A DNA stretch of 64,000 nucleotides from Candidatus Levyibacteriota bacterium (GTDB lineage Bacteria; Patescibacteriota; Microgenomatia; Levybacterales; UBA12049). Made by a program: the position numbers and the translations under genes. This document shows positions 1-38,605 of the stretch, piece by piece. The notes below the pieces were generated by a model. The model searched no databases and was not told the origin of the DNA. It saw only the letters and a list, made by a program, of their open reading frames with translations. Every line of letters starts with the position of its first letter. Within the stretch, counting starts at the first letter, position 1. Where the stretch lies: the NCBI GenBank assembly GCA_003173895.1, contig PJMG01000006.1:2820-66819 (forward strand), read 5' to 3'.

Positions 1-103
1 GATATGTTCCTAATTCACTATTAACGAATAAAACTCTTTGCTCACTTGATTTTTGAGCTATACGCAGTGCCTCACGAATTACAGGAGTTAATTCTGATTG
101 CAT
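1..103 (-). CDS. partial hypothetical protein (N-terminal fragment; gene runs off the window start)
   Basis: Reverse-strand ATG at 101-103 opens a frame (MQSELTPVIREALRIAQKSSEQRVLFVN...) that continues past position 1; not in the ORF track because it is truncated. Confidence 0.3.
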   Translation of the reverse strand, partial: MQSELTPVIREALRIAQKSSEQRVLFVNSELGTY

Positions 104-153
104 AAATTTATGAAAATTAAACCGGAAGAATTATATCATGAATGAGGAAAAAA

Positions 154-774
154 TTAAAGATAATCGATTGCGTTTTTTAAAAATATTACTATTGGACGAC
201 CATCTATATTAGATATAGTTTCAAATGCCCCTTCAGGTATAGGTCCCTTTAAACTATCAGGTAAAACAAGTACTGCCATTACTATTTCTTTACCATTATA
301 CATTCCTGTAGATACGGAATCATCAACGTCTTCAATAGCATATTCTAAAACTTCTGAAATAGCGGTTTCAGAATCTATATCTGGATTTACTTCACCTGCA
401 CCTATTTTTACATTCCCTATCTGCTGTTCTCCAGCTTTATATTTAGATTTTGCTAGAGTATTCCAACCAGCAGTAATAACTATGTCTCTGCCCATTACCA
501 CGATACCATTTAAACCACCTTGAATTTCTTCACCAATTTTATCAGCAATTTGTACTAATCTTTTTCCTACTTGGTCATAAGAAACACCTTCTCCTTCTTT
601 AAAACCTAACCATTCTAAATCTGGAGTAGGTTTAATAACTTTTAATTCTGGAAGTACCAATCTTTTAGATATTTGAGGCTCAACTAAAGGAGCGATTGCA
701 GGAGTTTCAGGCGTTGCTGTTGCTACCGCTACTCTTGTTTGTCTTTGTCCTTGATGTTCAATTTCAAGTGCCAT
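154..774 (-). CDS. hypothetical protein
   Basis: 206-aa intact ORF with no motif I recognise; Gly/Val/Ile-rich, acidic C-terminal half. Confidence 0.4.
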   Translation of the reverse strand: MALEIEHQGQRQTRVAVATATPETPAIAPLVEPQISKRLVLPELKVIKPTPDLEWLGFKEGEGVSYDQVGKRLVQIADKIGEEIQGGLNGIVVMGRDIVITAGWNTLAKSKYKAGEQQIGNVKIGAGEVNPDIDSETAISEVLEYAIEDVDDSVSTGMYNGKEIVMAVLVLPDSLKGPIPEGAFETISNIDGRPIVIFLKNAIDYL

Positions 775-868
775 ATTTTTGTCTGAGTTATGTTACAAAA
801 ATGTAATATTTTTGTAATAAAAATAAAATATACACCTATGCTGCTTAGTTGTCAACACCCATTTTAGG

Positions 869-896
869 TTGCAATATTACATTCAAATGCTATAAT
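869..896 (+). promoter_or_regulatory. sigma-70-type promoter for the sigma-factor gene, leaderless-type
   Basis: TTGCAA (869-874), 16-bp spacer, TGc-TATAAT (891-896); the ATG at 907 is only 10 nt downstream, and no SD is present. Confidence 0.45.
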
Positions 897-906
897 ATAG
901 GCTCTT

Positions 907-3153
907 ATGAGCTTAGAGATGTTGATTCCTAGACAAAATATAGATGATCCCACTATAAGTGGCTTTTCGTCTCCCGAAAAACTTCCAGAGGGCGTTCAAC
1001 AAACTCTTAATATCCGTGCCCTAACCAGGCAAATAGCAAAAGAAAGAGAAATTAATCTAAGGGGAGGCATGTTACAACAAATTAATGAATTAGCACAAAA
1101 AGCACAAGAATATTTATCTAAAGATCAGTTAGGAAATAAATATTTCTGTGAAGGACTTGCTTCAGTTATAAAACAAACTCTTTATGTTCAAAGTAAAGTA
1201 GAAAACTCTCATTCCTTAAAAGAATTTTCAATAGCAGATAATTTAGAGAATTTAATTAATGCTTATACCATAGAATATAACCAAACATTACAAAATGCTC
1301 AAGCTACTAATATTTTTACTACTACACAATGCCTTATAGTGGCAGAATATGGAGCTTTATATCATGGACCAAAGTTTCTAGATGAATTATTAAAATCTGA
1401 AGGTGCTAAAGATCTTATTTATTCTGATGCTGTTTTCTTTTCTATTGCCCACTGGGTTTCTGATCCTACAACTGCTTTATTAAAATTAAATCAAAAAATG
1501 CATGAATTAAGAAATAGTTATCCTCAAGCTAGCTCTAGAGCTTTATTCGATGCTGCGCGACAACCAAATCGTGCAGAACAAATACTGAATAATTTAATTA
1601 TTGATGTATATGCAAAACAATTTAAATTGGATTTATATATAGTAAAAGATGCTTTTAAAGCTATGCCTACAGAGGCAGCTATAACGTTCTTAAAAGAATT
1701 TAATGAGAGTATTAAATCTTTAAAGACTCTTTATCCTGGTTATGATGAATATATATATAGAAAAATTTTGTCAAAATATAGAGAGAATGTTCAGAAAGTG
1801 TTACAAAACTTACCCACGCAGATCATAAAATTATTAGCTATTTCTAAATATAAGGGACTTTCTAAAGAACTCTTAATTGCTGCTATAGCATATAACTATA
1901 ATAATCCTCAACAATTTCTTGACAACTATCTAGAAAAACACCCTATACGTCAAGAAGAAATAAGTAAAATGCCTACTTTAATTAAATCTATTATCTTAAA
2001 AGAACTTCTTACAGTATCGGAAATAGAATCTTCAGAACTCATAGCTCAAATTTTAACGGAATTAAAAAGGCATAATATTTTTGACCCTGAACAATACAAT
2101 CATAAAATTAGTAACTATTTAAATAATCTTTATCAAAATGGTGTTATCGGTGTTAGACATATACGTCAAAATTTAAATATTTATTTTTTACCTAAAGAAA
2201 ATGAGCTAATTGCAAAAGAAGAATTAATTGAAACTTCAGAATTTCCTACAGAACTTATTACAGAGAATACAGAAAATTCAGAAGAAGTAGAAATGGTAAG
2301 TTCAGAAGAAGCTGAAGATATGTTTAAAAATGATCCTAGTCTGCAGGATGTTAGTGACTCTGAAACTATGTATATACGAGAAGCTACTAAATTGCCACTT
2401 TTAAATCATTCTCAAGAAATAGAATTAGCTAAAAGAATAGAAAAAGGAGATAAAGAAGCGAGAGAATTATTCATAAAAGCAAATATGCGCCTCGTTATCT
2501 CTATAGCTAAAAAATATAGAGGAAGACATTTATCGTTTCTAGATCTCATTCAAGAAGGTAATATAGGATTAATAGAAGCAGTTGAGACCTATGACTGGAG
2601 ACGAGGTTCTAGATTCTCTACGCACGCTACTTGGCTTATTAGACGAGATATTCTATCTGCTTTAAATGATAAATCGAGAATCATACGTATACCAACACAT
2701 ATGATTACTAAAATTAATCGTGTAAATAGAGAACGTAATAGATTAACTCAAGAATTGGGTCATGAACCATCAAATGAGGAATTATCTAAGGAATTAGGCA
2801 TAACATTAGATGCTTTAAACGAAATTGAAGAAGCACAGATTCAAATGTATTCTCTTGATGCTCCTTTAGATGACGAGCCAGATAATTCATTAGGTGATTT
2901 TGTAGAAGATGAAAGAGATGATTATGAAAATGTAGAGACAGATGATATTTCTATGACCATACAAGAAGCATTAGCTATTCTTACAGAGCGAGAGAAACAA
3001 GTTATTATATATAGATTTTATCATAGTAAAAGTTTAATAGAAACAGGAAGAGAATTAGGTGTTGGTCGAGAAAGAGTTAGACAAATAGAAACTACAGCTA
3101 TAAATAAACTTAGATCCCCTAAAGCAATACGTATTTTACAAGAAGCTCGCTAA
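907..3153 (+). CDS. RNA polymerase sigma-70 family sigma factor with a ~480-aa non-homologous N-terminal extension
   Basis: The C-terminal ~260 aa carry regions 1.2-4.2: [54 protein letters not shown] (region 2), region 3, and [36 protein letters not shown] (region 4 HTH). An acidic stretch precedes region 1.2. The N-terminal 480 aa match nothing I recognise. Confidence 0.8.
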
Positions 3154-3201
3154 CTTTTCCCTTGCTCCCCTACTTTTCATATGTTAGTCTAGATAAATAG
3201 T

Positions 3202-5613
3202 ATGCTTTCATTTTTAAATCGCGCTATTAGATATCTTTTTTACGCACTTTTCTTTTTAATACCACTAACATTTTGGGGCTCTACATCAGAACTTTTTGAG
3301 TTTAATAAAATGTGGCTGACTTTTATCATCACTATTCTTATAGCAGCCTGCTGGATTTCTAAAATGATCATTACTAAGAAATTTATCTTTAAAAGAACTC
3401 CACTAGATATTCCTATCGGTCTTTTTCTACTTTCCCAAATCATCTCTACTATCTTTACTCTAGACCATCATGTTTCACTTTGGGGTTATTATGGCCGTTG
3501 GAACGGCGGATTGTTATCAATTATCTCTTATATCTTTTTATATTATGCCCTGGTTAGTAATATATTGAATGACAAGCAAGGGGTGGTGAACCTGGAAGGG
3601 ATCCCGATGGCGCGCAACGATTTAATTACGAAGCAATTACCTAGTGAGCACCAGCGGGAGGGAAAGGTTCGACAGGACCCCGCATTAGCAGGACCCGCGT
3701 TCTTAAATCAACCTTTTGTCTTTAACATCCTAAAAATTTCTCTTCTTTCAGGCTTTATCGTCTGCCTTTGGGGTCTTCCAGGACATTTCGGTTACGATCC
3801 TACTTGTTTATTGTTCCGTGGCCATTTGGATGTTTCCTGTTGGACCGCTGATTTTCAACCTAAAATTAGAATTTTCTCTACTCTTGGCCAACCCGATTGG
3901 CTCGCTGCCTATTTAGCTATTCTTATTCCAATCTCTTTATTTTTCGCACTTTCAAATGCTTATTCATTTTTCACCCGCGATAAAAGATTAAAAATAAATT
4001 ATCAACCTCTACTCTATTCTCTTGGCTATTCGCTCTTAACCATGTGTTACTTCATAGCATCTATCTATACTCAATCTAAAAGCGGCTTTATAGGCATTAT
4101 TTTAGAACTAGTCATTTTCTGGTTAATAATTTTAATTAAGCAAAATAAAGATAAACTGTTCTTTAAATTATTTGTAATTTGTTTCTTTACCATTGGTATT
4201 ATTGTTTTCTTAGTTGGTTCTCCATTCGCTCAAATTAATAAATTTACTTTTCCTAGCTTACAGAATATTTTTAGTTCTAAGTCAACATCTACCACTCATC
4301 CATCAACTGGTGGAACACAACCAATTGCTGCTCCCGCTGGCGAGCTCGGCGGAACAGACAGTGGAAAGATCAGACTTTTCGTTTGGGAAGGAGCCGTAAA
4401 AGCTTGGCTAGCTCATCCTATTTTCGGTACAGGAGTGGAAACATTCGCCTTCGCATACTATTTATATAGACCAGCCGGACATAATCTAACTTCTGAATGG
4501 GATTACCTTTATAATAAAGCTCATAATGAATATCTCAACTATCTCGCCACCACTGGAGCCTTCGGCCTTTTAACTTACTTATCAATCCTGAGTATCTTTA
4601 TTTTTTTAATCTTAAAACAAATCTTTAGAAACAAGTCCATTATTGTCATTCCCGCGAAGGCGGGAATCTATGCAGAGGGATCCCCGATCAGGTCGGGGAT
4701 GACAAAAGAAACTCTACTTATAGCATTACTATCTTCCTATACCGGTATTCTCATCACTAACTTTTTTGGTTTTTCAGTAGTTATAGTTAATATTTATCTA
4801 TTTCTAATCCCCGCTTTGTTTTTTCTATTTATTAAGCAAGCGGATTTTAATACAGATTCCCAACAACTAGGCAAACCTTTAGCTCTTTCTTCAGGACAAA
4901 TTTTCGCTATGATTATAACTTTCTTAATTGGTCTTTATCTTATTATTGTGTTGATAAATTATTGGACTGCGGATCAGGACTATGCTTATGGTCAGGGCTT
5001 AGATCATCTCAGCCTTTTTGATAAAGCTTATCCTTACCTAAAAAGTGCTGCTGATAAGAGACCTAGTGAACCTGTATTTAAAGACGAACTTTCTGTAGCT
5101 GAAGGCAGTTTAGCCTTAGCCGAAGCCCAAAATAATAATCTAAATCTAGCGAATACTTTTGCTGAGAATGCTATTAACACCAGTGATGAACTAATCACTA
5201 ACTATCCTAATGACATCATTTTTTGGAAAAGCAGAATTAGAATTTTCTACGCATTATCTGAAGTGGATAAAAAATATTTAGCTTATGCCTTACAAGCTGC
5301 CCAAGAAGCTAATAAATTAGCTCCTACAGATGCTAAAGTCTCATATAATTTAGGCGTATTATATGCCCAAAACGGCGATTTAGATAAAGCTATTTCTACT
5401 CTTAAACAGACTATCGCACTAAAAAAAGACTATTCTGATGCATATTTTGCTTTAGGTTTAGTTTATAGAACCAAAGCATTGGATAAGAATGGAAAATTGA
5501 TAGATAAGGAAGCAGAAGCCAATGCTGTTTATTATATGAAGTATATTTTAAACAACTTTGATCCAAATAATGCTGACGTTATAAAAAACCTCCAAAGTTG
5601 GGGCGAGCTGTAA
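3202..5613 (+). CDS. O-antigen ligase (Wzy_C)-like polytopic membrane protein with C-terminal TPR repeats; contains two in-frame GC-rich repeat insertions
   Basis: Multiple TM helices. Wzy_C-like core WEGAVKAWLAHPIFGTGVETF...HNEYLNYLATTGAFGLL. C-terminal TPR-like repeats (AYFALGLVYRTKALDKNGKL...). A gene with this architecture has been reported in Patescibacteria-type genomes. Confidence 0.7.
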   Translation: MLSFLNRAIRYLFYALFFLIPLTFWGSTSELFEFNKMWLTFIITILIAACWISKMIITKKFIFKRTPLDIPIGLFLLSQIISTIFTLDHHVSLWGYYGRWNGGLLSIISYIFLYYALVSNILNDKQGVVNLEGIPMARNDLITKQLPSEHQREGKVRQDPALAGPAFLNQPFVFNILKISLLSGFIVCLWGLPGHFGYDPTCLLFRGHLDVSCWTADFQPKIRIFSTLGQPDWLAAYLAILIPISLFFALSNAYSFFTRDKRLKINYQPLLYSLGYSLLTMCYFIASIYTQSKSGFIGIILELVIFWLIILIKQNKDKLFFKLFVICFFTIGIIVFLVGSPFAQINKFTFPSLQNIFSSKSTSTTHPSTGGTQPIAAPAGELGGTDSGKIRLFVWEGAVKAWLAHPIFGTGVETFAFAYYLYRPAGHNLTSEWDYLYNKAHNEYLNYLATTGAFGLLTYLSILSIFIFLILKQIFRNKSIIVIPAKAGIYAEGSPIRSGMTKETLLIALLSSYTGILITNFFGFSVVIVNIYLFLIPALFFLFIKQADFNTDSQQLGKPLALSSGQIFAMIITFLIGLYLIIVLINYWTADQDYAYGQGLDHLSLFDKAYPYLKSAADKRPSEPVFKDELSVAEGSLALAEAQNNNLNLANTFAENAINTSDELITNYPNDIIFWKSRIRIFYALSEVDKKYLAYALQAAQEANKLAPTDAKVSYNLGVLYAQNGDLDKAISTLKQTIALKKDYSDAYFALGLVYRTKALDKNGKLIDKEAEANAVYYMKYILNNFDPNNADVIKNLQSWGEL
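3578..3702. repeat. GC-rich element family 2 (AAGGGGTGG...CGACAGGACCCCG), full-length copy inserted in-frame in the CDS 3202-5613
   Basis: A ~125-bp island of about 55% GC inside an AT-rich gene. It encodes a hydrophilic loop (QGVVNLEGIPMARNDLITKQLPSEHQREGKVRQDPALAGPAFL) between two hydrophobic segments. Related copies sit at 24008-24057 and 26405-26426. Confidence 0.6.
4644..4704. repeat. MITE-like palindromic element family 1 (TGTCATyC...CGAAGG...GATGACA), in-frame inside the CDS 3202-5613
   Basis: tgtcattcccgcgaaggcgggaatc...gatccccgatcaggtcggggatgaca: two GC hairpins bounded by a TGTCAT/ATGACA terminal inverted repeat. It is translated as IPAKAGIYAEGSPIRSGMTKE without breaking the frame. 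Confidence 0.6.
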
Positions 5614-5695: not shown

Positions 5696-5812
5696 TTGAC
5701 AAAAGATGATCTATTGTACATAATGTACTTACAAAGGCTCTGTTTTCGAATTGTCACCGTATGGTGCGCGTTCCAGGCTTACGTTTGGATAGAAAGCAGA
5801 GTCGTTTTTTAT
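5696..5812 (+). ncRNA. candidate small RNA or bidirectional terminator structure driven by a consensus promoter
   Basis: TTGACA (5696-5701), 17 bp, CATAAT (5719-5724). Then a long-range stem GGCTCTG (5736-5742) / CAGAGTC (5797-5803) encloses an inner hairpin CACCGTATGGTG and is followed by GTTTTTT. No + strand CDS lies downstream. The structure overlaps the stop of the DUF3800 gene and could simply be its terminator. Confidence 0.3.
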
Positions 5813-35136: not shown

Positions 35137-36150
35137 CTAATTAACTACTTGACCTAAACTCCAATCGCTATCAAAGTCAGAATTTAAACTTTGTAAAATA
35201 TCTGCTTGTGAAATAATAATTCCCATTTCCCTATTTTGATCCATACTTTGAGTAGTTAAATTTACTGAGCCAATATAAGCTTTAGTGTTATCAATATCTA
35301 TCAATTTCGCATGAATGTAAGGTGATGAAACAGTTTCTACTTCAATTCCGGCATTTTTTAACTGATCCGCTGCATATTTATTAGTGCTAACTTTAGAAAA
35401 ACCAGCTAGAATTACTTTTATCTGAGTACTTTTAGCTTTTTGAGTTAATAAATTTATTATTTGTTTATCATCAATAACTTCTGTTTCTATATCTATAGTT
35501 TTAGCCGCAGAATTTAAAAGTGTAACTAACTTATCTCTAGAATTATCAGGGCTAACTACTAAATTAGAATCTGCGATATTTAAACTTTGACGTTGTGCAT
35601 CTGCATTAAAAATCTGATCAATGGTTTGTGCGTCTGTAGGATTATCATCCATAATGTCATACTCACGATTGGATTTAAAAGATGCTGCAGTTAAATTCTG
35701 ATTCATTATCCAAACTTCATTATTATCAATAACAATTGCCTTTTCATGAGTTAAAGCAAAACTGGGGTTTGTCCAATTTACTGGTATACCATCAGCAGTT
35801 AATTCTGACTTAGCTTTTTCATTTATATTTCCAGCACCAAAAGGATGCTGTTCTAATAAAACATGAACGATTATTCCCCGATCATGAGCAGCCTCAAGCG
35901 CAGAAATTATTTCTTTATCAGATAATAAATACATTTCTAAATCTATTTCTTTTTGCGCATTATTTATGGAATCAATAATAGGAGATCGTCCATCCATGGG
36001 TTGCTCAAAAAGTGTGAGATTATTTTCTGTACCTAAAACTTGAACTGAATGATTATTAAGATTTTGGTGATTAAAAACAAAATAGAGAGAATAAATAAAA
36101 AAACAGAGAACTAAAATTCCTAAATTCTTTTTAAGAAAAGAGCGCATCAA
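35137..36150 (-). CDS. phospholipase D-family protein (two HKD motifs), secreted
   Basis: Signal/TM N-terminus. HEKAIVIDNNEVWIMNQN, and a perfect second motif HAKLIDIDNTKAYIGSVNLT (HxKx4Dx6GSxN). Confidence 0.75.
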   Translation of the reverse strand: MMRSFLKKNLGILVLCFFIYSLYFVFNHQNLNNHSVQVLGTENNLTLFEQPMDGRSPIIDSINNAQKEIDLEMYLLSDKEIISALEAAHDRGIIVHVLLEQHPFGAGNINEKAKSELTADGIPVNWTNPSFALTHEKAIVIDNNEVWIMNQNLTAASFKSNREYDIMDDNPTDAQTIDQIFNADAQRQSLNIADSNLVVSPDNSRDKLVTLLNSAAKTIDIETEVIDDKQIINLLTQKAKSTQIKVILAGFSKVSTNKYAADQLKNAGIEVETVSSPYIHAKLIDIDNTKAYIGSVNLTTQSMDQNREMGIIISQADILQSLNSDFDSDWSLGQVVN

Positions 36151-36192: not shown

Positions 36193-36200
36193 ATTAACTC
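36193..36200. repeat. 8-bp target-site duplication ATTAACTC (left)
   Basis: Identical to 38010-38017, immediately outside the IS terminal inverted repeats. Confidence 0.75.
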
Positions 36201-36263
36201 GGCACTTATCCCATAACCTCATGTAATGTGATATAATTAGGTTGTCCTGCCTGACTAAATCGC

Positions 36264-37136
36264 ATGAATGAATTTAATTTCGGGCAGTTTTTAAAAAAAT
36301 ACGGTAGTGAGAAAAAATGTTTGGATTACCTCATAAAACTTAAGTGTCCTGATGGTATTTACTGCAAACAATGTGAGAGGGTAAAAAAGTTTACAAAGAT
36401 TAGAACAAGAACTGTCTATCAATGCTCTTGTGGATATCAAGTAAGTCCACTAGTTGGAACAATCTTTGAAAAAAGTAGTACACCTTTAACTTACTGGTTT
36501 TACGCAATCTTCTTGATGTCTAATACCAGATCAGGCATATCAGCAAAACAGTTACAAAGAGAGCTTGGAGTAACTTACAAAACAGCCTGGAGGATGTTTA
36601 AACAAATAAGAATCTTGATGCAATACACGACAGATAAACTTAAAGGAACGATTGAAGTAGATGAAACTTATGTAGGAGGTAAAGGGTGGAATAGAAGATA
36701 TATTCCTAATTTTAATGAGAAACCGAAAGAAGTAGTTTTCGGGATGGTAGAAAGAAATGGGAATGCGAAGCTACTTCATTTACCAGGTAATGGTAGAAGA
36801 CAATTAGTCGAAGAAATTCAAAAAAACATAGATAAAGGCTCCTATATTATCAGTGATCAATATGCAGCATACAATTACGTAACAAAGATTGGTTATACCC
36901 ATGATTTTGTAACTCATCGAAAAGAGTATGTTAGTAAAAAAGATCCGAATGTTTACACACAAAATATCGAGAGCATCTGGTCTCACTTAAAGAGAGGAAT
37001 CTTTGGAGTTTATCGAAAGACTTCCAAGAAATACTTACAGAGTTACGTTAACGAATTTGCTTTTAGATATAACTATAGAAATCAAAATATGTTTGATATA
37101 TTGATTAAACAGTCAATTAATTCTAAAATTAAATAA
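36264..37136 (+). CDS. IS1595-family (ISXO2-like) DDE transposase
   Basis: N-terminal zinc ribbon CPDGIYCKQCERV...QCSCGY, then TIEVDETYVGGKG, the hallmark of the IS1595 DDE domain. Confidence 0.8.
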   Translation: MNEFNFGQFLKKYGSEKKCLDYLIKLKCPDGIYCKQCERVKKFTKIRTRTVYQCSCGYQVSPLVGTIFEKSSTPLTYWFYAIFLMSNTRSGISAKQLQRELGVTYKTAWRMFKQIRILMQYTTDKLKGTIEVDETYVGGKGWNRRYIPNFNEKPKEVVFGMVERNGNAKLLHLPGNGRRQLVEEIQKNIDKGSYIISDQYAAYNYVTKIGYTHDFVTHRKEYVSKKDPNVYTQNIESIWSHLKRGIFGVYRKTSKKYLQSYVNEFAFRYNYRNQNMFDILIKQSINSKIK

Positions 37137-37190
37137 ATATTCTTACTAATATATTATTTGATTATAAAAAATCAATTATAATATAAGTAT

Positions 37191-37442
37191 ATGATAACCA
37201 AAAAAGAAGATTCTGCAACAAATATTGATTTATCCATAACTAATGGTGATTTAGCTGCATTAAAAGAAGTTAAAAATAAATGGAAATTTAAAAATATTGA
37301 AGATATTTTACGTTTTGCTCTAGCAGTAATGAAAAAGTCTGAAAAGAATAAAATTTATGTAGATGAAAATGGAACTCAGGTAGGATACGTTCCTGCTGAC
37401 AGCATGATAGAAAAAGAAGAAAAACCTTCTCAATCTACTTAA
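37191..37442 (+). CDS. IS cargo ORF 1, hypothetical 83 aa
   Basis: Lies inside the IS between the transposase and IRR. Acidic and hydrophilic, with no motif I recognise. Confidence 0.35.
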   Translation: MITKKEDSATNIDLSITNGDLAALKEVKNKWKFKNIEDILRFALAVMKKSEKNKIYVDENGTQVGYVPADSMIEKEEKPSQST

Positions 37443-37454
37443 TATTATTCTAAT

Positions 37455-37823
37455 ATGACAAAAAACAAAAATGACGAGACATTTCCAACGGATGATTATC
37501 TTAAAAAGGATCAATATACTAAAGAATTTGAAGATTTAAATAAAAGAACAAAGTCACTAGAAGAAAGATTAGGAACTAATGAAAATCTTGCAAAAAGTTT
37601 TTGTGAAGCTGTTGATAGTCAATCTAAAATGAAAGACAGTATAACTGATCACATAGTAGAATTACTCGAAGAAAACCCAAAAGTCCAAGAAGCTCTCCAA
37701 AAACAAGTTAATAAAATAGATAGAAATGCTGTTATGAGTTTAATTAAAAAAATAGGCTTTGCTGGTTGGACTTTAATTATTGCTCTTCTAAGTGGTGGAT
37801 TAGTTTTTATAATTAAAAAATAA
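37455..37823 (+). CDS. IS cargo ORF 2, hypothetical C-tail-anchored membrane protein
   Basis: A coiled hydrophilic N-terminus with a C-terminal TM segment GFAGWTLIIALLSGGLVFII; inside the IS. Confidence 0.35.
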   Translation: MTKNKNDETFPTDDYLKKDQYTKEFEDLNKRTKSLEERLGTNENLAKSFCEAVDSQSKMKDSITDHIVELLEENPKVQEALQKQVNKIDRNAVMSLIKKIGFAGWTLIIALLSGGLVFIIKK

Positions 37824-38009
37824 ATTACTTTTTTTTATCAAATGGAGAATGTTTAATAGCCTCTTTAAGTATTAATTCAAATAAATTTTTATCAGCTTTT
37901 CTAGTAGTTTTCTTAAGCTTTTTCTTTTTTTTATTAGGCATACTAAAACTGTAGCACACCTTAACTTTTAGAACAATCTGTGGTTACATGAAGCTTGGGG
38001 ATAAGTGCC

Positions 38010-38017
38010 ATTAACTC
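38010..38017. repeat. 8-bp target-site duplication ATTAACTC (right)
   Basis: See 36193-36200. Confidence 0.75.
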
Positions 38018-38056
38018 CGCTTGACAAAAGATAAATTTTAGGTCCATACTAATTTT

Positions 38057-38605
38057 ATGCCAGAGGAAACCATTTCTACTTCAGAACAAAAAACTTATGG
38101 TTATGGAAAAAGACCTCTTTGGCAATGGATTCTTCTTTATGTGGTTATAGGAGCTATTATTTATGGAATTATTTATTATTTTGTTTTCTATAAAAAAGGT
38201 GGTTATAACTATACTTCTGGAAATTCTTATCAATACCCTACTACAGCAGCTCAGCAAGTTACTACGACTCAAACACCAACTGTTTCCATCAGTCCAAGTA
38301 CATCCACTGCTCCCAGTGGAACTATGATAGCCGAAAAAATTACAGTAACAGGAACTGAATTTGCATTTAATCCTTCTACTATAAATGCTAAAGTAAATGA
38401 ACCTATCACAGTTACATTTAAAAATGATGGAACTTATCCACATAATTTCACTATTAGTGAATTAAATGTAAAGACTAAAACTATTCAACCAGGCGAAGAA
38501 GATACCATCACTTTTACACCTACTAAAACTGGTTCATTCATTTATCTCTGCACAGTTCCCGGACATGCTGATCGTGGCATGAAAGGAACATTAATCGTTC
38601 AATAA
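38057..38605 (+). CDS. membrane-anchored cupredoxin (blue copper protein, plastocyanin/azurin-like)
   Basis: N-terminal TM segment and a Thr-rich linker. Type-1 Cu ligands: H in YPHNFTI, then C-TVPG-H-ADRG-M (CxxxHxxxxM). Confidence 0.7.
   Translation: MPEETISTSEQKTYGYGKRPLWQWILLYVVIGAIIYGIIYYFVFYKKGGYNYTSGNSYQYPTTAAQQVTTTQTPTVSISPSTSTAPSGTMIAEKITVTGTEFAFNPSTINAKVNEPITVTFKNDGTYPHNFTISELNVKTKTIQPGEEDTITFTPTKTGSFIYLCTVPGHADRGMKGTLIVQ

Follow-up and report, generated by a model that had tools for sequence, protein, structure and literature searches.

A passenger-carrying IS1595-family insertion sequence in a Levyibacteriota genome, with a conserved small reverse-strand gene and a gene pair recurrently linked to IS1595 and IS1 transposases

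Insertion sequences (IS) that carry passenger genes, also termed transporter IS or 'tIS', were first defined on the IS1595 family (PMC3129680, PMC7986276, PMC4611040). In a different group of mobile elements, the transposition modules of the Tn3 family are known to embed toxin-antitoxin pairs (PMC7157771). We describe here an IS1595-family element from a genome of Candidatus Levyibacteriota (assembly GCA_003173895.1), found in a 64,000-nucleotide stretch of contig PJMG01000006.1 that we refer to as the window. The region was read directly and its open reading frames (ORFs) were listed. The element spans 1,809 bp (window positions 36201-38009), is located in the spacer between a PLD-like gene and a cupredoxin gene, and is very probably a single, structurally intact, passenger-carrying IS ('transporter IS') consisting of four parts: terminal inverted repeats with a flanking target-site duplication, a transposase gene with all catalytic residues, a pair of passenger genes (ORF83 and ORF122), and a small reverse-strand gene beside the right inverted repeat (IRR). 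As one more passenger-bearing member of the IS1595 family, a kind of element known since 2009, it is in itself ordinary. What is new beyond a first-pass annotation of the same DNA is the conserved small reverse gene, together with the conservation of the ORF83/ORF122 pair and its linkage to IS1595 and IS1 transposases.

Transposases of the IS1595 family contain a zinc-ribbon N-terminal domain (missing solely in the IS1016 group) and a catalytic signature of D, D and E (or N/H), followed by a K/R seven residues past the third. In their treatment of 2009, Siguier, Gagnevin and Chandler reportedly included in the family an ISNwi1 subgroup with passenger genes ('ISNwi1+'). We take the ISfinder description of ISNwi1/ISNwi1+ to comprise a repeat tip of ggnnatTAT, a DDEK variant of the signature, and passenger-bearing members of 1.75-4.75 kb. 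All of these values fit the window element, with its tip GGCACTTAT, residues E236 and K243, length of 1,809 bp and cargo. The element thus resembles ISNwi1+ in its zinc ribbon and DDE_Tnp_IS1595 domain, its D/D/E triad with a lysine seven residues on, repeats beginning GGnnnTTAT, an 8-bp duplication, extra genes within the repeats and a 1.8-kb length. It differs in that its transposase is 56% identical at most to the nearest relatives found (unnamed copies in metagenome-assembled genomes), such that it would need a new IS name, and in that the hosts of its clade are Microgenomates of the Candidate Phyla Radiation (CPR). It also departs from the IS1595 family as a whole: members of that family are stated to 'have a single transposase gene' (PMC8101967), whereas the clade of the window element adds the conserved small reverse gene.

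The ends of the element are defined by 26-nt terminal inverted repeats that are complementary at 22 of 26 positions (85%), and by a perfect 8-bp duplication, ATTAACTC, that abuts the left inverted repeat (IRL) and the IRR without a gap. Both features had been proposed in the first-pass annotation and both hold on exact alignment. They agree with the repeats beginning GG and the 8-bp target-site duplication that characterize IS1595. The 12-nt tip of the repeats, GGCACTTATCCC, is found twice in the window (0.17 occurrences expected), at the two element ends and in inverted orientation; the same tip, combined with perfect 8-bp duplications, also bounds 53 related elements elsewhere. A composite transposon or a pair of abutting IS was ruled out by the presence of a single transposase and a single repeat pair. 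The sequence GGCACTTATCCCATAACCTCATG would serve for recognizing further copies of the element. As a separate observation, the duplicated octamer ATTAACTC occurs 11 times in the whole window compared with 4.8 expected, a count reached by three of 100 shuffles.

The earlier assignment of the transposase to the IS1595 family was confirmed by profile searches. The protein matched Pfam DDE_Tnp_IS1595 (PF12762) with an E-value of 1.5e-35 (122.9 bits, cut-off 27) and NCBIfam NF033547, 'IS1595 family transposase', with 183.4 bits (cut-off 75); the IS1595 zinc ribbon (PF12760) scored 23.0 bits, slightly below its cut-off of 25.4. The zinc-ribbon cysteines (C19, C34, C37 and C54) and the residues D133, D198, E236 and K243 (the lysine lying seven residues past the glutamate) are all present in the window copy and are invariant in an alignment of 28 transposases, comprising the window copy and 27 relatives. 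The transposase is encoded by one ORF with no frameshift, and the clade also has a second conserved ORF, the small reverse gene considered below. An extended -10-like sequence, TGaTATAAT, lies just inside the IRL and upstream of the transposase gene; it was not returned by a promoter consensus scan and represents a putative promoter.

A transposase scan limited to one genome per species identified 80 related loci (labelled L below). The top 45 belong mostly to Microgenomates-type CPR genomes (Levy-, Gottesman-, Davies-, Curtiss- and Blackburnbacteria), and the remainder mostly to Chloroflexi/Dehalococcoidia. A complete element was taken to be a pair of inverted repeats flanked by a perfect 8-bp duplication, and 53 such elements were delimited among the 80 loci, with repeats that are identical at 16-24 of 24 positions. 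Their lengths range from 1,422 to 5,204 bp and none corresponds to a minimal element of ~1.1 kb; extra DNA beyond the transposase gene is therefore the rule in the clade. The earlier claim that the repeats of the window element enclose extra genes is supported. Two of the 5,204-bp copies, found in one Dehalococcoidia genome (L055:4954-10157 and L059:4954-10157), are 99.92% identical, with unrelated flanks and different duplications. Their near-identity at different sites indicates that cargo-laden members of the clade move as whole units.

The genome that contains these two copies also has two variants of the same element (L054 and L056), each with an additional ~1.2-kb insert at element position 1520, and an internal segment of 1.7 kb recurs elsewhere in these loci. 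Many of the contigs with CPR-type IS copies (L001, L006, L008, L013 and others) are titled 'uncultured Gammaproteobacteria'. The element and duplication in L001 are identical to those of a Levyibacteriota contig (L002), and such labels therefore look unreliable.

The ORFs other than the transposase are almost all unrelated from one element to another, and the closest transposase relatives (56% identical) have cargo wholly different from ORF83 and ORF122. Pfam annotation of 30 of these ORFs left about two thirds without any family. The recognizable cargo comprised replication-relaxation proteins, an Na+/H+ exchanger with a TrkA domain, a CAAX-type protease, a SocA/Panacea antitoxin, a P63C protein, an HNH endonuclease, an N6-methylase fusion, and a pair of bAvd and reverse-transcriptase genes reminiscent of a diversity-generating retroelement. 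The latter pair was seen in a 4.65-kb IS1595 relative (L022:3192-4668, and the near-identical L028), which encodes a bAvd-like protein and a reverse transcriptase alongside a replication-relaxation gene; this looks like a diversity-generating-retroelement cassette inside an insertion sequence.

One feature did recur. In an all-against-all comparison, small minus-strand ORFs were shared between elements, and a hidden Markov model (HMM) built from 16 of them gave a minus-strand match at roughly 60 of the 80 loci. The small ORF is found in 37 of the 53 complete elements; in 26 it abuts or overlaps the 3' end of the transposase gene convergently, and the remaining 11 carry it at a displacement of 0.3-1.8 kb, six of them (the window element included) with the ORF 26-154 bp from the IRR. 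Cargo is found on either side of the small ORF. The encoded proteins are 40-60 residues long, very basic, and share the motif ...DK.L..F(L/I)K.GGREGAK.DF..LLK.A..P(FD)KK... The first-pass annotation had listed a possible 37-residue basic ORF on the opposite strand at approximately positions 37820-37940 as part of the cargo. That ORF does exist (38 residues from an ATG, or 44 if started at an upstream GTG), and it is its status as cargo that did not stand: judged by its sequence conservation, it belongs to the conserved make-up of this IS1595 clade in CPR bacteria and Chloroflexi.

Start codons and lengths of the small ORF are conserved in the family alignment, and dN/dS (the ratio of nonsynonymous to synonymous substitution rates) is 0.08-0.3 among displaced copies, on which no overlap with the transposase 3' end imposes constraint; synonymous sites are saturated. 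A profile search of 5.8 billion proteins returned 66 members of 30-69 residues, with no Pfam domain and annotated only as 'hypothetical protein'. AlphaFold2 models a typical member as a helix-loop-helix hairpin, with a predicted local distance difference test (pLDDT) score of 82. An ORF arising by chance in AT-rich DNA was ruled out, given its conservation in GC-richer hosts and its low dN/dS. A different explanation is that the conservation acts on DNA or RNA (an antisense RNA or a terminator), or that the ORF is the C-terminal remnant of an ancestral passenger gene. Overlap with the transposase gene, which occurs or nearly occurs in 26 of the 37 elements, could contribute to the constraint, the window copy is truncated, and the same motif forms the C-terminus of two large cargo proteins (a P63C protein in L037 and the methylase fusion in L051), so that fusions to it evidently occur. 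We regard this explanation as very unlikely, since it does not account for eleven displaced ORFs that are intact and show low dN/dS at saturated synonymous sites, for conserved starts and lengths, for a confident structural model, or for 66 database entries predicted independently by gene callers.

We believe the simplest reading of these arrangements is a core consisting of the IRL, the transposase gene, the small ORF and the IRR, with two cargo slots; the window cargo, on the same reading, occupies the one flanked by the transposase gene and the small ORF. A parallel is offered by the IS1 family, which is related to IS1595 and encodes a small regulator, InsA, upstream of its transposase frame. 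The two families have transposases of a related superfamily and a small basic protein encoded beside the transposase. InsA, however, is co-directional with the transposase, shares its N-terminus, and has zinc-finger and helix-turn-helix (HTH) motifs, whereas the small protein of the window clade is encoded convergently, is about 40-60 residues long, is modelled as a helix hairpin and does not resemble InsA in sequence.

The subterminal spacer between the IRR and the small ORF is 130-150 bp long in several relatives and holds perfect short palindromes in L001, L005, L011 and L026 (ACCACTACGCGTAGTGGT in L005 and L011, GTGTGTACGCGTACACAC in L001), followed in L001, L005 and L011 by a second hairpin. 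In a comparison of right ends that also included L004, these palindromes and hairpins were absent from the window copy and from L015. A guide or regulatory RNA encoded in the right end of the window element was dropped as a candidate, because an Rfam search of the element found no RNA family; the sole Rfam match over the gathering score in the window is a DUF3800-IX RNA at positions 5737-5806 (+ strand, 61.1 bits).

We turn now to the passenger genes. A word-indexed search with ORF122 matched the query alone, and ORF83 retrieved one protein, 46% identical, on a 901-bp contig (L081); the ORF that follows it there encodes a 118-residue protein that is 39% identical to ORF122. An exhaustive profile search with ORF83 returned 240 cluster representatives at E<=1e-3, nearly all of 76-110 residues. 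In all contexts that were inspected, a co-directional gene for a protein of 97-127 residues with a C-terminal hydrophobic anchor comes after the ORF83-like gene, at a distance of a few bases, and adjacent, co-directional homologues of both genes were seen in L081, L083-87, L090-95, L097, L098, L100 and L102. The junction is 12 bp in the window, and the homologous genes overlap in L087. The cargo had initially been described as lacking any recognizable family and ORF83 as acidic; neither description survives, given the size of the ORF83 family with its constant tail-anchored neighbour, and given that ORF83 is near neutral (pI 6.3, with 14 D+E and 14 K+R). The proposed C-tail anchor of ORF122 was recovered by hydropathy analysis as a single hydrophobic segment. 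An AlphaFold2 model of ORF83, predicted with high confidence, has a beta-beta-alpha-alpha-beta-beta topology.

The context loci were retrieved by similarity to the ORF83 family, and the sample is therefore unbiased towards transposases. The pair lies next to a transposase or an end of the IS1595 or IS1 family in seven of 13 informative independent contexts, the window included. It is directly downstream of an IS1595 transposase gene in L091 and L092, whereas in L086 some 780 bp separate it from the IS1595 transposase remnant upstream of it; in L082 it adjoins a right repeat of the IS1595 type, and there the membrane tail is all that is left of the ORF122 homologue. In L090 and L095/96 it follows directly on an IS1-family transposase (DDE_Tnp_IS1). 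No clear inverted repeats were found to bound the IS1-linked or the distant IS1595-linked copies of the pair. A frequency of seven in 13 appears to be far above what chance capture would give. ORF83/ORF122 is thus a conserved gene pair recurrently linked to two related transposase families.

Several further features of these loci were noted. The IS1-family transposases of L090 (2399-3912) and L095 (4286-5608) are 65% identical, and each is followed by an ORF83/ORF122-type pair. A P63C gene lies alongside in L095, and P63C is also cargo of the IS1595 relative L037. In L092 (positions 1-4700) IS1595 copies are nested: a transposase gene, whose C-terminal part lies at 4370-4687, is split by a complete IS1595 copy on the opposite strand (3367-4272), with a 352-residue gene after the inserted copy and a third, partial copy at 5-727. 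In the window element itself, a 24-nt AT-rich inverted repeat (21 of 24 positions; 37147-37170 and 37804-37827) brackets the pair almost exactly. A match of 21/24 was reached by one of 100 Markov shuffles of the element, and the repeat could be a scar left by acquisition of the pair, or a chance product of local AT-richness.

With these observations in hand, the element can be pictured as follows. The transposase would bind the repeats and move the whole unit including its cargo, as shown for a relative by the near-identical 5.2-kb copies, and DDE-type transposition would generate the 8-bp duplication. The small protein may be an accessory factor or regulator of transposition, and the usual convergent overlap of its gene with the 3' end of the transposase gene would permit antisense interference. 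ORF83 and ORF122 would constitute a module complete in itself, one that recurs in association with transposases of the IS1595 and IS1 families. By analogy with the toxin-antitoxin pairs in Tn3-family transposition modules (PMC7157771), we tentatively suggest that the pair might combine a membrane-acting effector with a small cytosolic partner (ORF83, possibly DNA-binding or neutralizing), and that an addiction- or exclusion-type action of the two might help the element to be retained. A toxin-antitoxin or anti-defence role had also been raised as a possibility in the first-pass annotation. The likeness consists in a small two-gene operon beside the transposase gene, inside the transposon, that recurs across related transposons. 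As in type II toxin-antitoxin systems, two small co-directional genes have a short or overlapping junction, and their order is conserved everywhere. The Tn3 pairs differ in that they belong to recognized type II families; ORF83 and ORF122 match no toxin or antitoxin family, and no such family or fold was recognized for them in Pfam, NCBIfam, PADLOC or the PDB.

A broader version of this reading, which we consider possible if doubtful, holds that, in CPR bacteria and Chloroflexi, IS1595 elements of the ISNwi-like kind have a two-gene core, made up of the transposase and a convergent 40-60-residue helix-hairpin protein that regulates or assists transposition, with two cargo slots that take diverse genes (the diversity-generating-retroelement-like pair, restriction-modification-type genes, a Panacea antitoxin gene), and that ORF83/ORF122 is a dedicated companion membrane module of IS1595 and IS1.

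Several observations weigh against the picture drawn above. The ORF83 model gave no significant fold match in the PDB or BFVD with Foldseek; its best partial matches, to ribbon-helix-helix proteins (NikR and a MazE) over ~40 residues at a probability of about 0.55, give a hint of likeness to that fold. Neither ORF83 nor ORF122 matched any entry in Pfam, NCBIfam or PADLOC or any PDB sequence. Weak PHROG 'hemolysin' matches (E 0.008-0.09) were obtained with ORF122 and three others of the nine family members scanned. These PHROG families are presumably of the XhlA type, a tail-anchored lysis protein, and the matches would amount to a weak likeness of ORF122 to it. The pair, moreover, occurs without a transposase in six of the 13 contexts. 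It lies just upstream of terminase and portal genes in L087-89, beside a polyvalent protein (LPD38) and an M23 peptidase in L102-104, and in apparently chromosomal settings in L083-85, L094, L098 and L100/101, L083 too having an M23 peptidase close to the pair.

The last two sets of observations raise the possibility that ORF83 and ORF122 derive from phage machinery for lysis or exclusion, consisting of a tail-anchored membrane protein like XhlA and its small partner, and that the element acquired them by chance and gains nothing from them. ORF122 shares with XhlA a length of ~90-120 residues, an N-terminal part that is helical or coiled, and one membrane anchor at the C-terminus. Its matches are not significant, however; XhlA families were absent from a Pfam scan at E<=1, the element encodes neither a holin nor an endolysin, and ORF122 is always paired with ORF83, whereas XhlA is not. 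Pattern scans of IMG/VR for the cargo, made with narrow alignments, also gave no match (nor did such scans of JGI metagenomes), and chance capture does not readily explain why the pair is linked time and again to two IS families. We think this origin unlikely. Less likely still is a model in which ORF83 and ORF122 are not passengers and instead form an accessory module of IS1/IS1595-type transposition, acting for example in membrane tethering or transposase control and co-evolving with the transposase. The linkage in seven of the 13 contexts across two related IS families, the constant position of the pair downstream of, and co-directional with, the transposase gene, and a divergence of the pair (39-46% identity) that resembles that of the associated transposases (32-44%) would all be expected on such a model. 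It sits poorly with the entirely different cargo of the closest transposase relatives, with the occurrence of the pair in phage-like and chromosomal settings that have no transposase, and with the fact that most IS1595 elements are without the pair.

For the small protein, no PDB sequence match and no significant fold match in the PDB or BFVD was found, and NCBIfam and PADLOC gave nothing meaningful; no description of a second IS1595 gene was found in the literature, and ISfinder may already note one. The window copy is the shortest of the family and is without the GGREGAK loop and the N-terminal third. It lies 42 bp from the repeat, compared with about 130-150 bp (with palindromes) in relatives, and its dN/dS against relatives is 0.5-0.7; this copy of the small ORF may be decaying. 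Positions 13-18 of the window IRL read ATAACC in place of the TTGACA found in nearly all relatives, whose left-repeat consensus is GGCACTTATCCC-TTGACA-nCAnGT, and, as regards current activity, one copy of the element is seen within the 64-kb window. It is accordingly possible, in our view with less than even probability, that the window copy is an immobile relic: besides the altered IRL box and the single copy, its repeats match at only 22 of 26 positions, and its right end is shortened and its small ORF truncated relative to relatives. Set against this are the perfect duplication, the uninterrupted transposase ORF with every invariant residue, the -10-like sequence upstream of it, and the range of repeat identity among complete relatives (16-24/24), in which the window value is normal. 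We continue to favour an intact element and, on the basis of two features, the perfect duplication and the intact transposase gene, its insertion may be recent.

The flanking genes are divergent, as first described, and the spacer between them measures 89 bp without the element, with a predicted uninterrupted-site junction of ...AGTATTAAGAATTAACTCCGCTTGACAAAAG... Exact-protein look-ups with the transposase, ORF122, the cupredoxin and the PLD protein gave no indexed entry, and within that scope neither an empty site nor a second copy of the element was found. The insertion may, as first suggested, alter expression of the flanking genes; the best promoter-like site of the cupredoxin gene begins four bases past the right duplication and is intact. 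The features of the locus are collected in Table 1.

Table 1. Features of the IS1595-family element and its flanks (window coordinates)
Feature	Position	Strand	Basis
Left target-site duplication, ATTAACTC	36193..36200	.	Abuts IRL
Whole IS1595-family element, 1,809 bp	36201..38009	+	Inverted repeats and duplication; architecture as in 53 relatives
IRL, GGCACTTATCCCATAACCTCATGTAA	36201..36226	+	22/26 with IRR; tip GGCACTTATCCC common to relatives
Extended -10-like TGaTATAAT upstream of transposase gene, just inside IRL	36229..36237	+	Read by eye
Transposase, 290 aa, zinc ribbon, HTH and DDE domain	36264..37136	+	Pfam, NCBIfam, conserved residues
ORF83, first gene of passenger pair, small soluble protein	37191..37442	+	240 family representatives; AlphaFold2 pLDDT 90.8
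ORF122, second gene of pair, helical, C-terminal membrane anchor at residues 102-120	37455..37823	+	Homology, family alignment, hydropathy
Small basic protein gene, 38 aa from ATG	37825..37941	-	HMM match E=3e-5; family alignment; short, 5'-truncated in appearance
IRR	37984..38009	-	22/26 with IRL; tip unique to the two ends
Right target-site duplication, ATTAACTC	38010..38017	.	Abuts IRR
PLD-like gene, flanking, outside element	35137..36150	-	Pfam PLDc_2 3.6e-45
Promoter-like site TTGACA-18-CATACT for cupredoxin gene	38021..38050	+	Best site in promoter scan
Cupredoxin gene, flanking, outside element	38057..38605	+	Cupredoxin_1 6.6e-16

The element described here opens the way into a large clade of IS with cargo that has so far been poorly catalogued. 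Its hosts, CPR bacteria and Chloroflexi, include bacteria with small genomes and few known routes of gene exchange, and genes of very diverse kinds are moved by the clade, each set as one unit. Should the small protein prove to act in transposition, IS1595 could no longer be described as a one-gene family. Should a true tie between the ORF83/ORF122 pair and the IS1595 and IS1 transposases be established, the Tn3 family with its toxin-antitoxin pairs would be joined by a second example of a small module built into the transposition unit.

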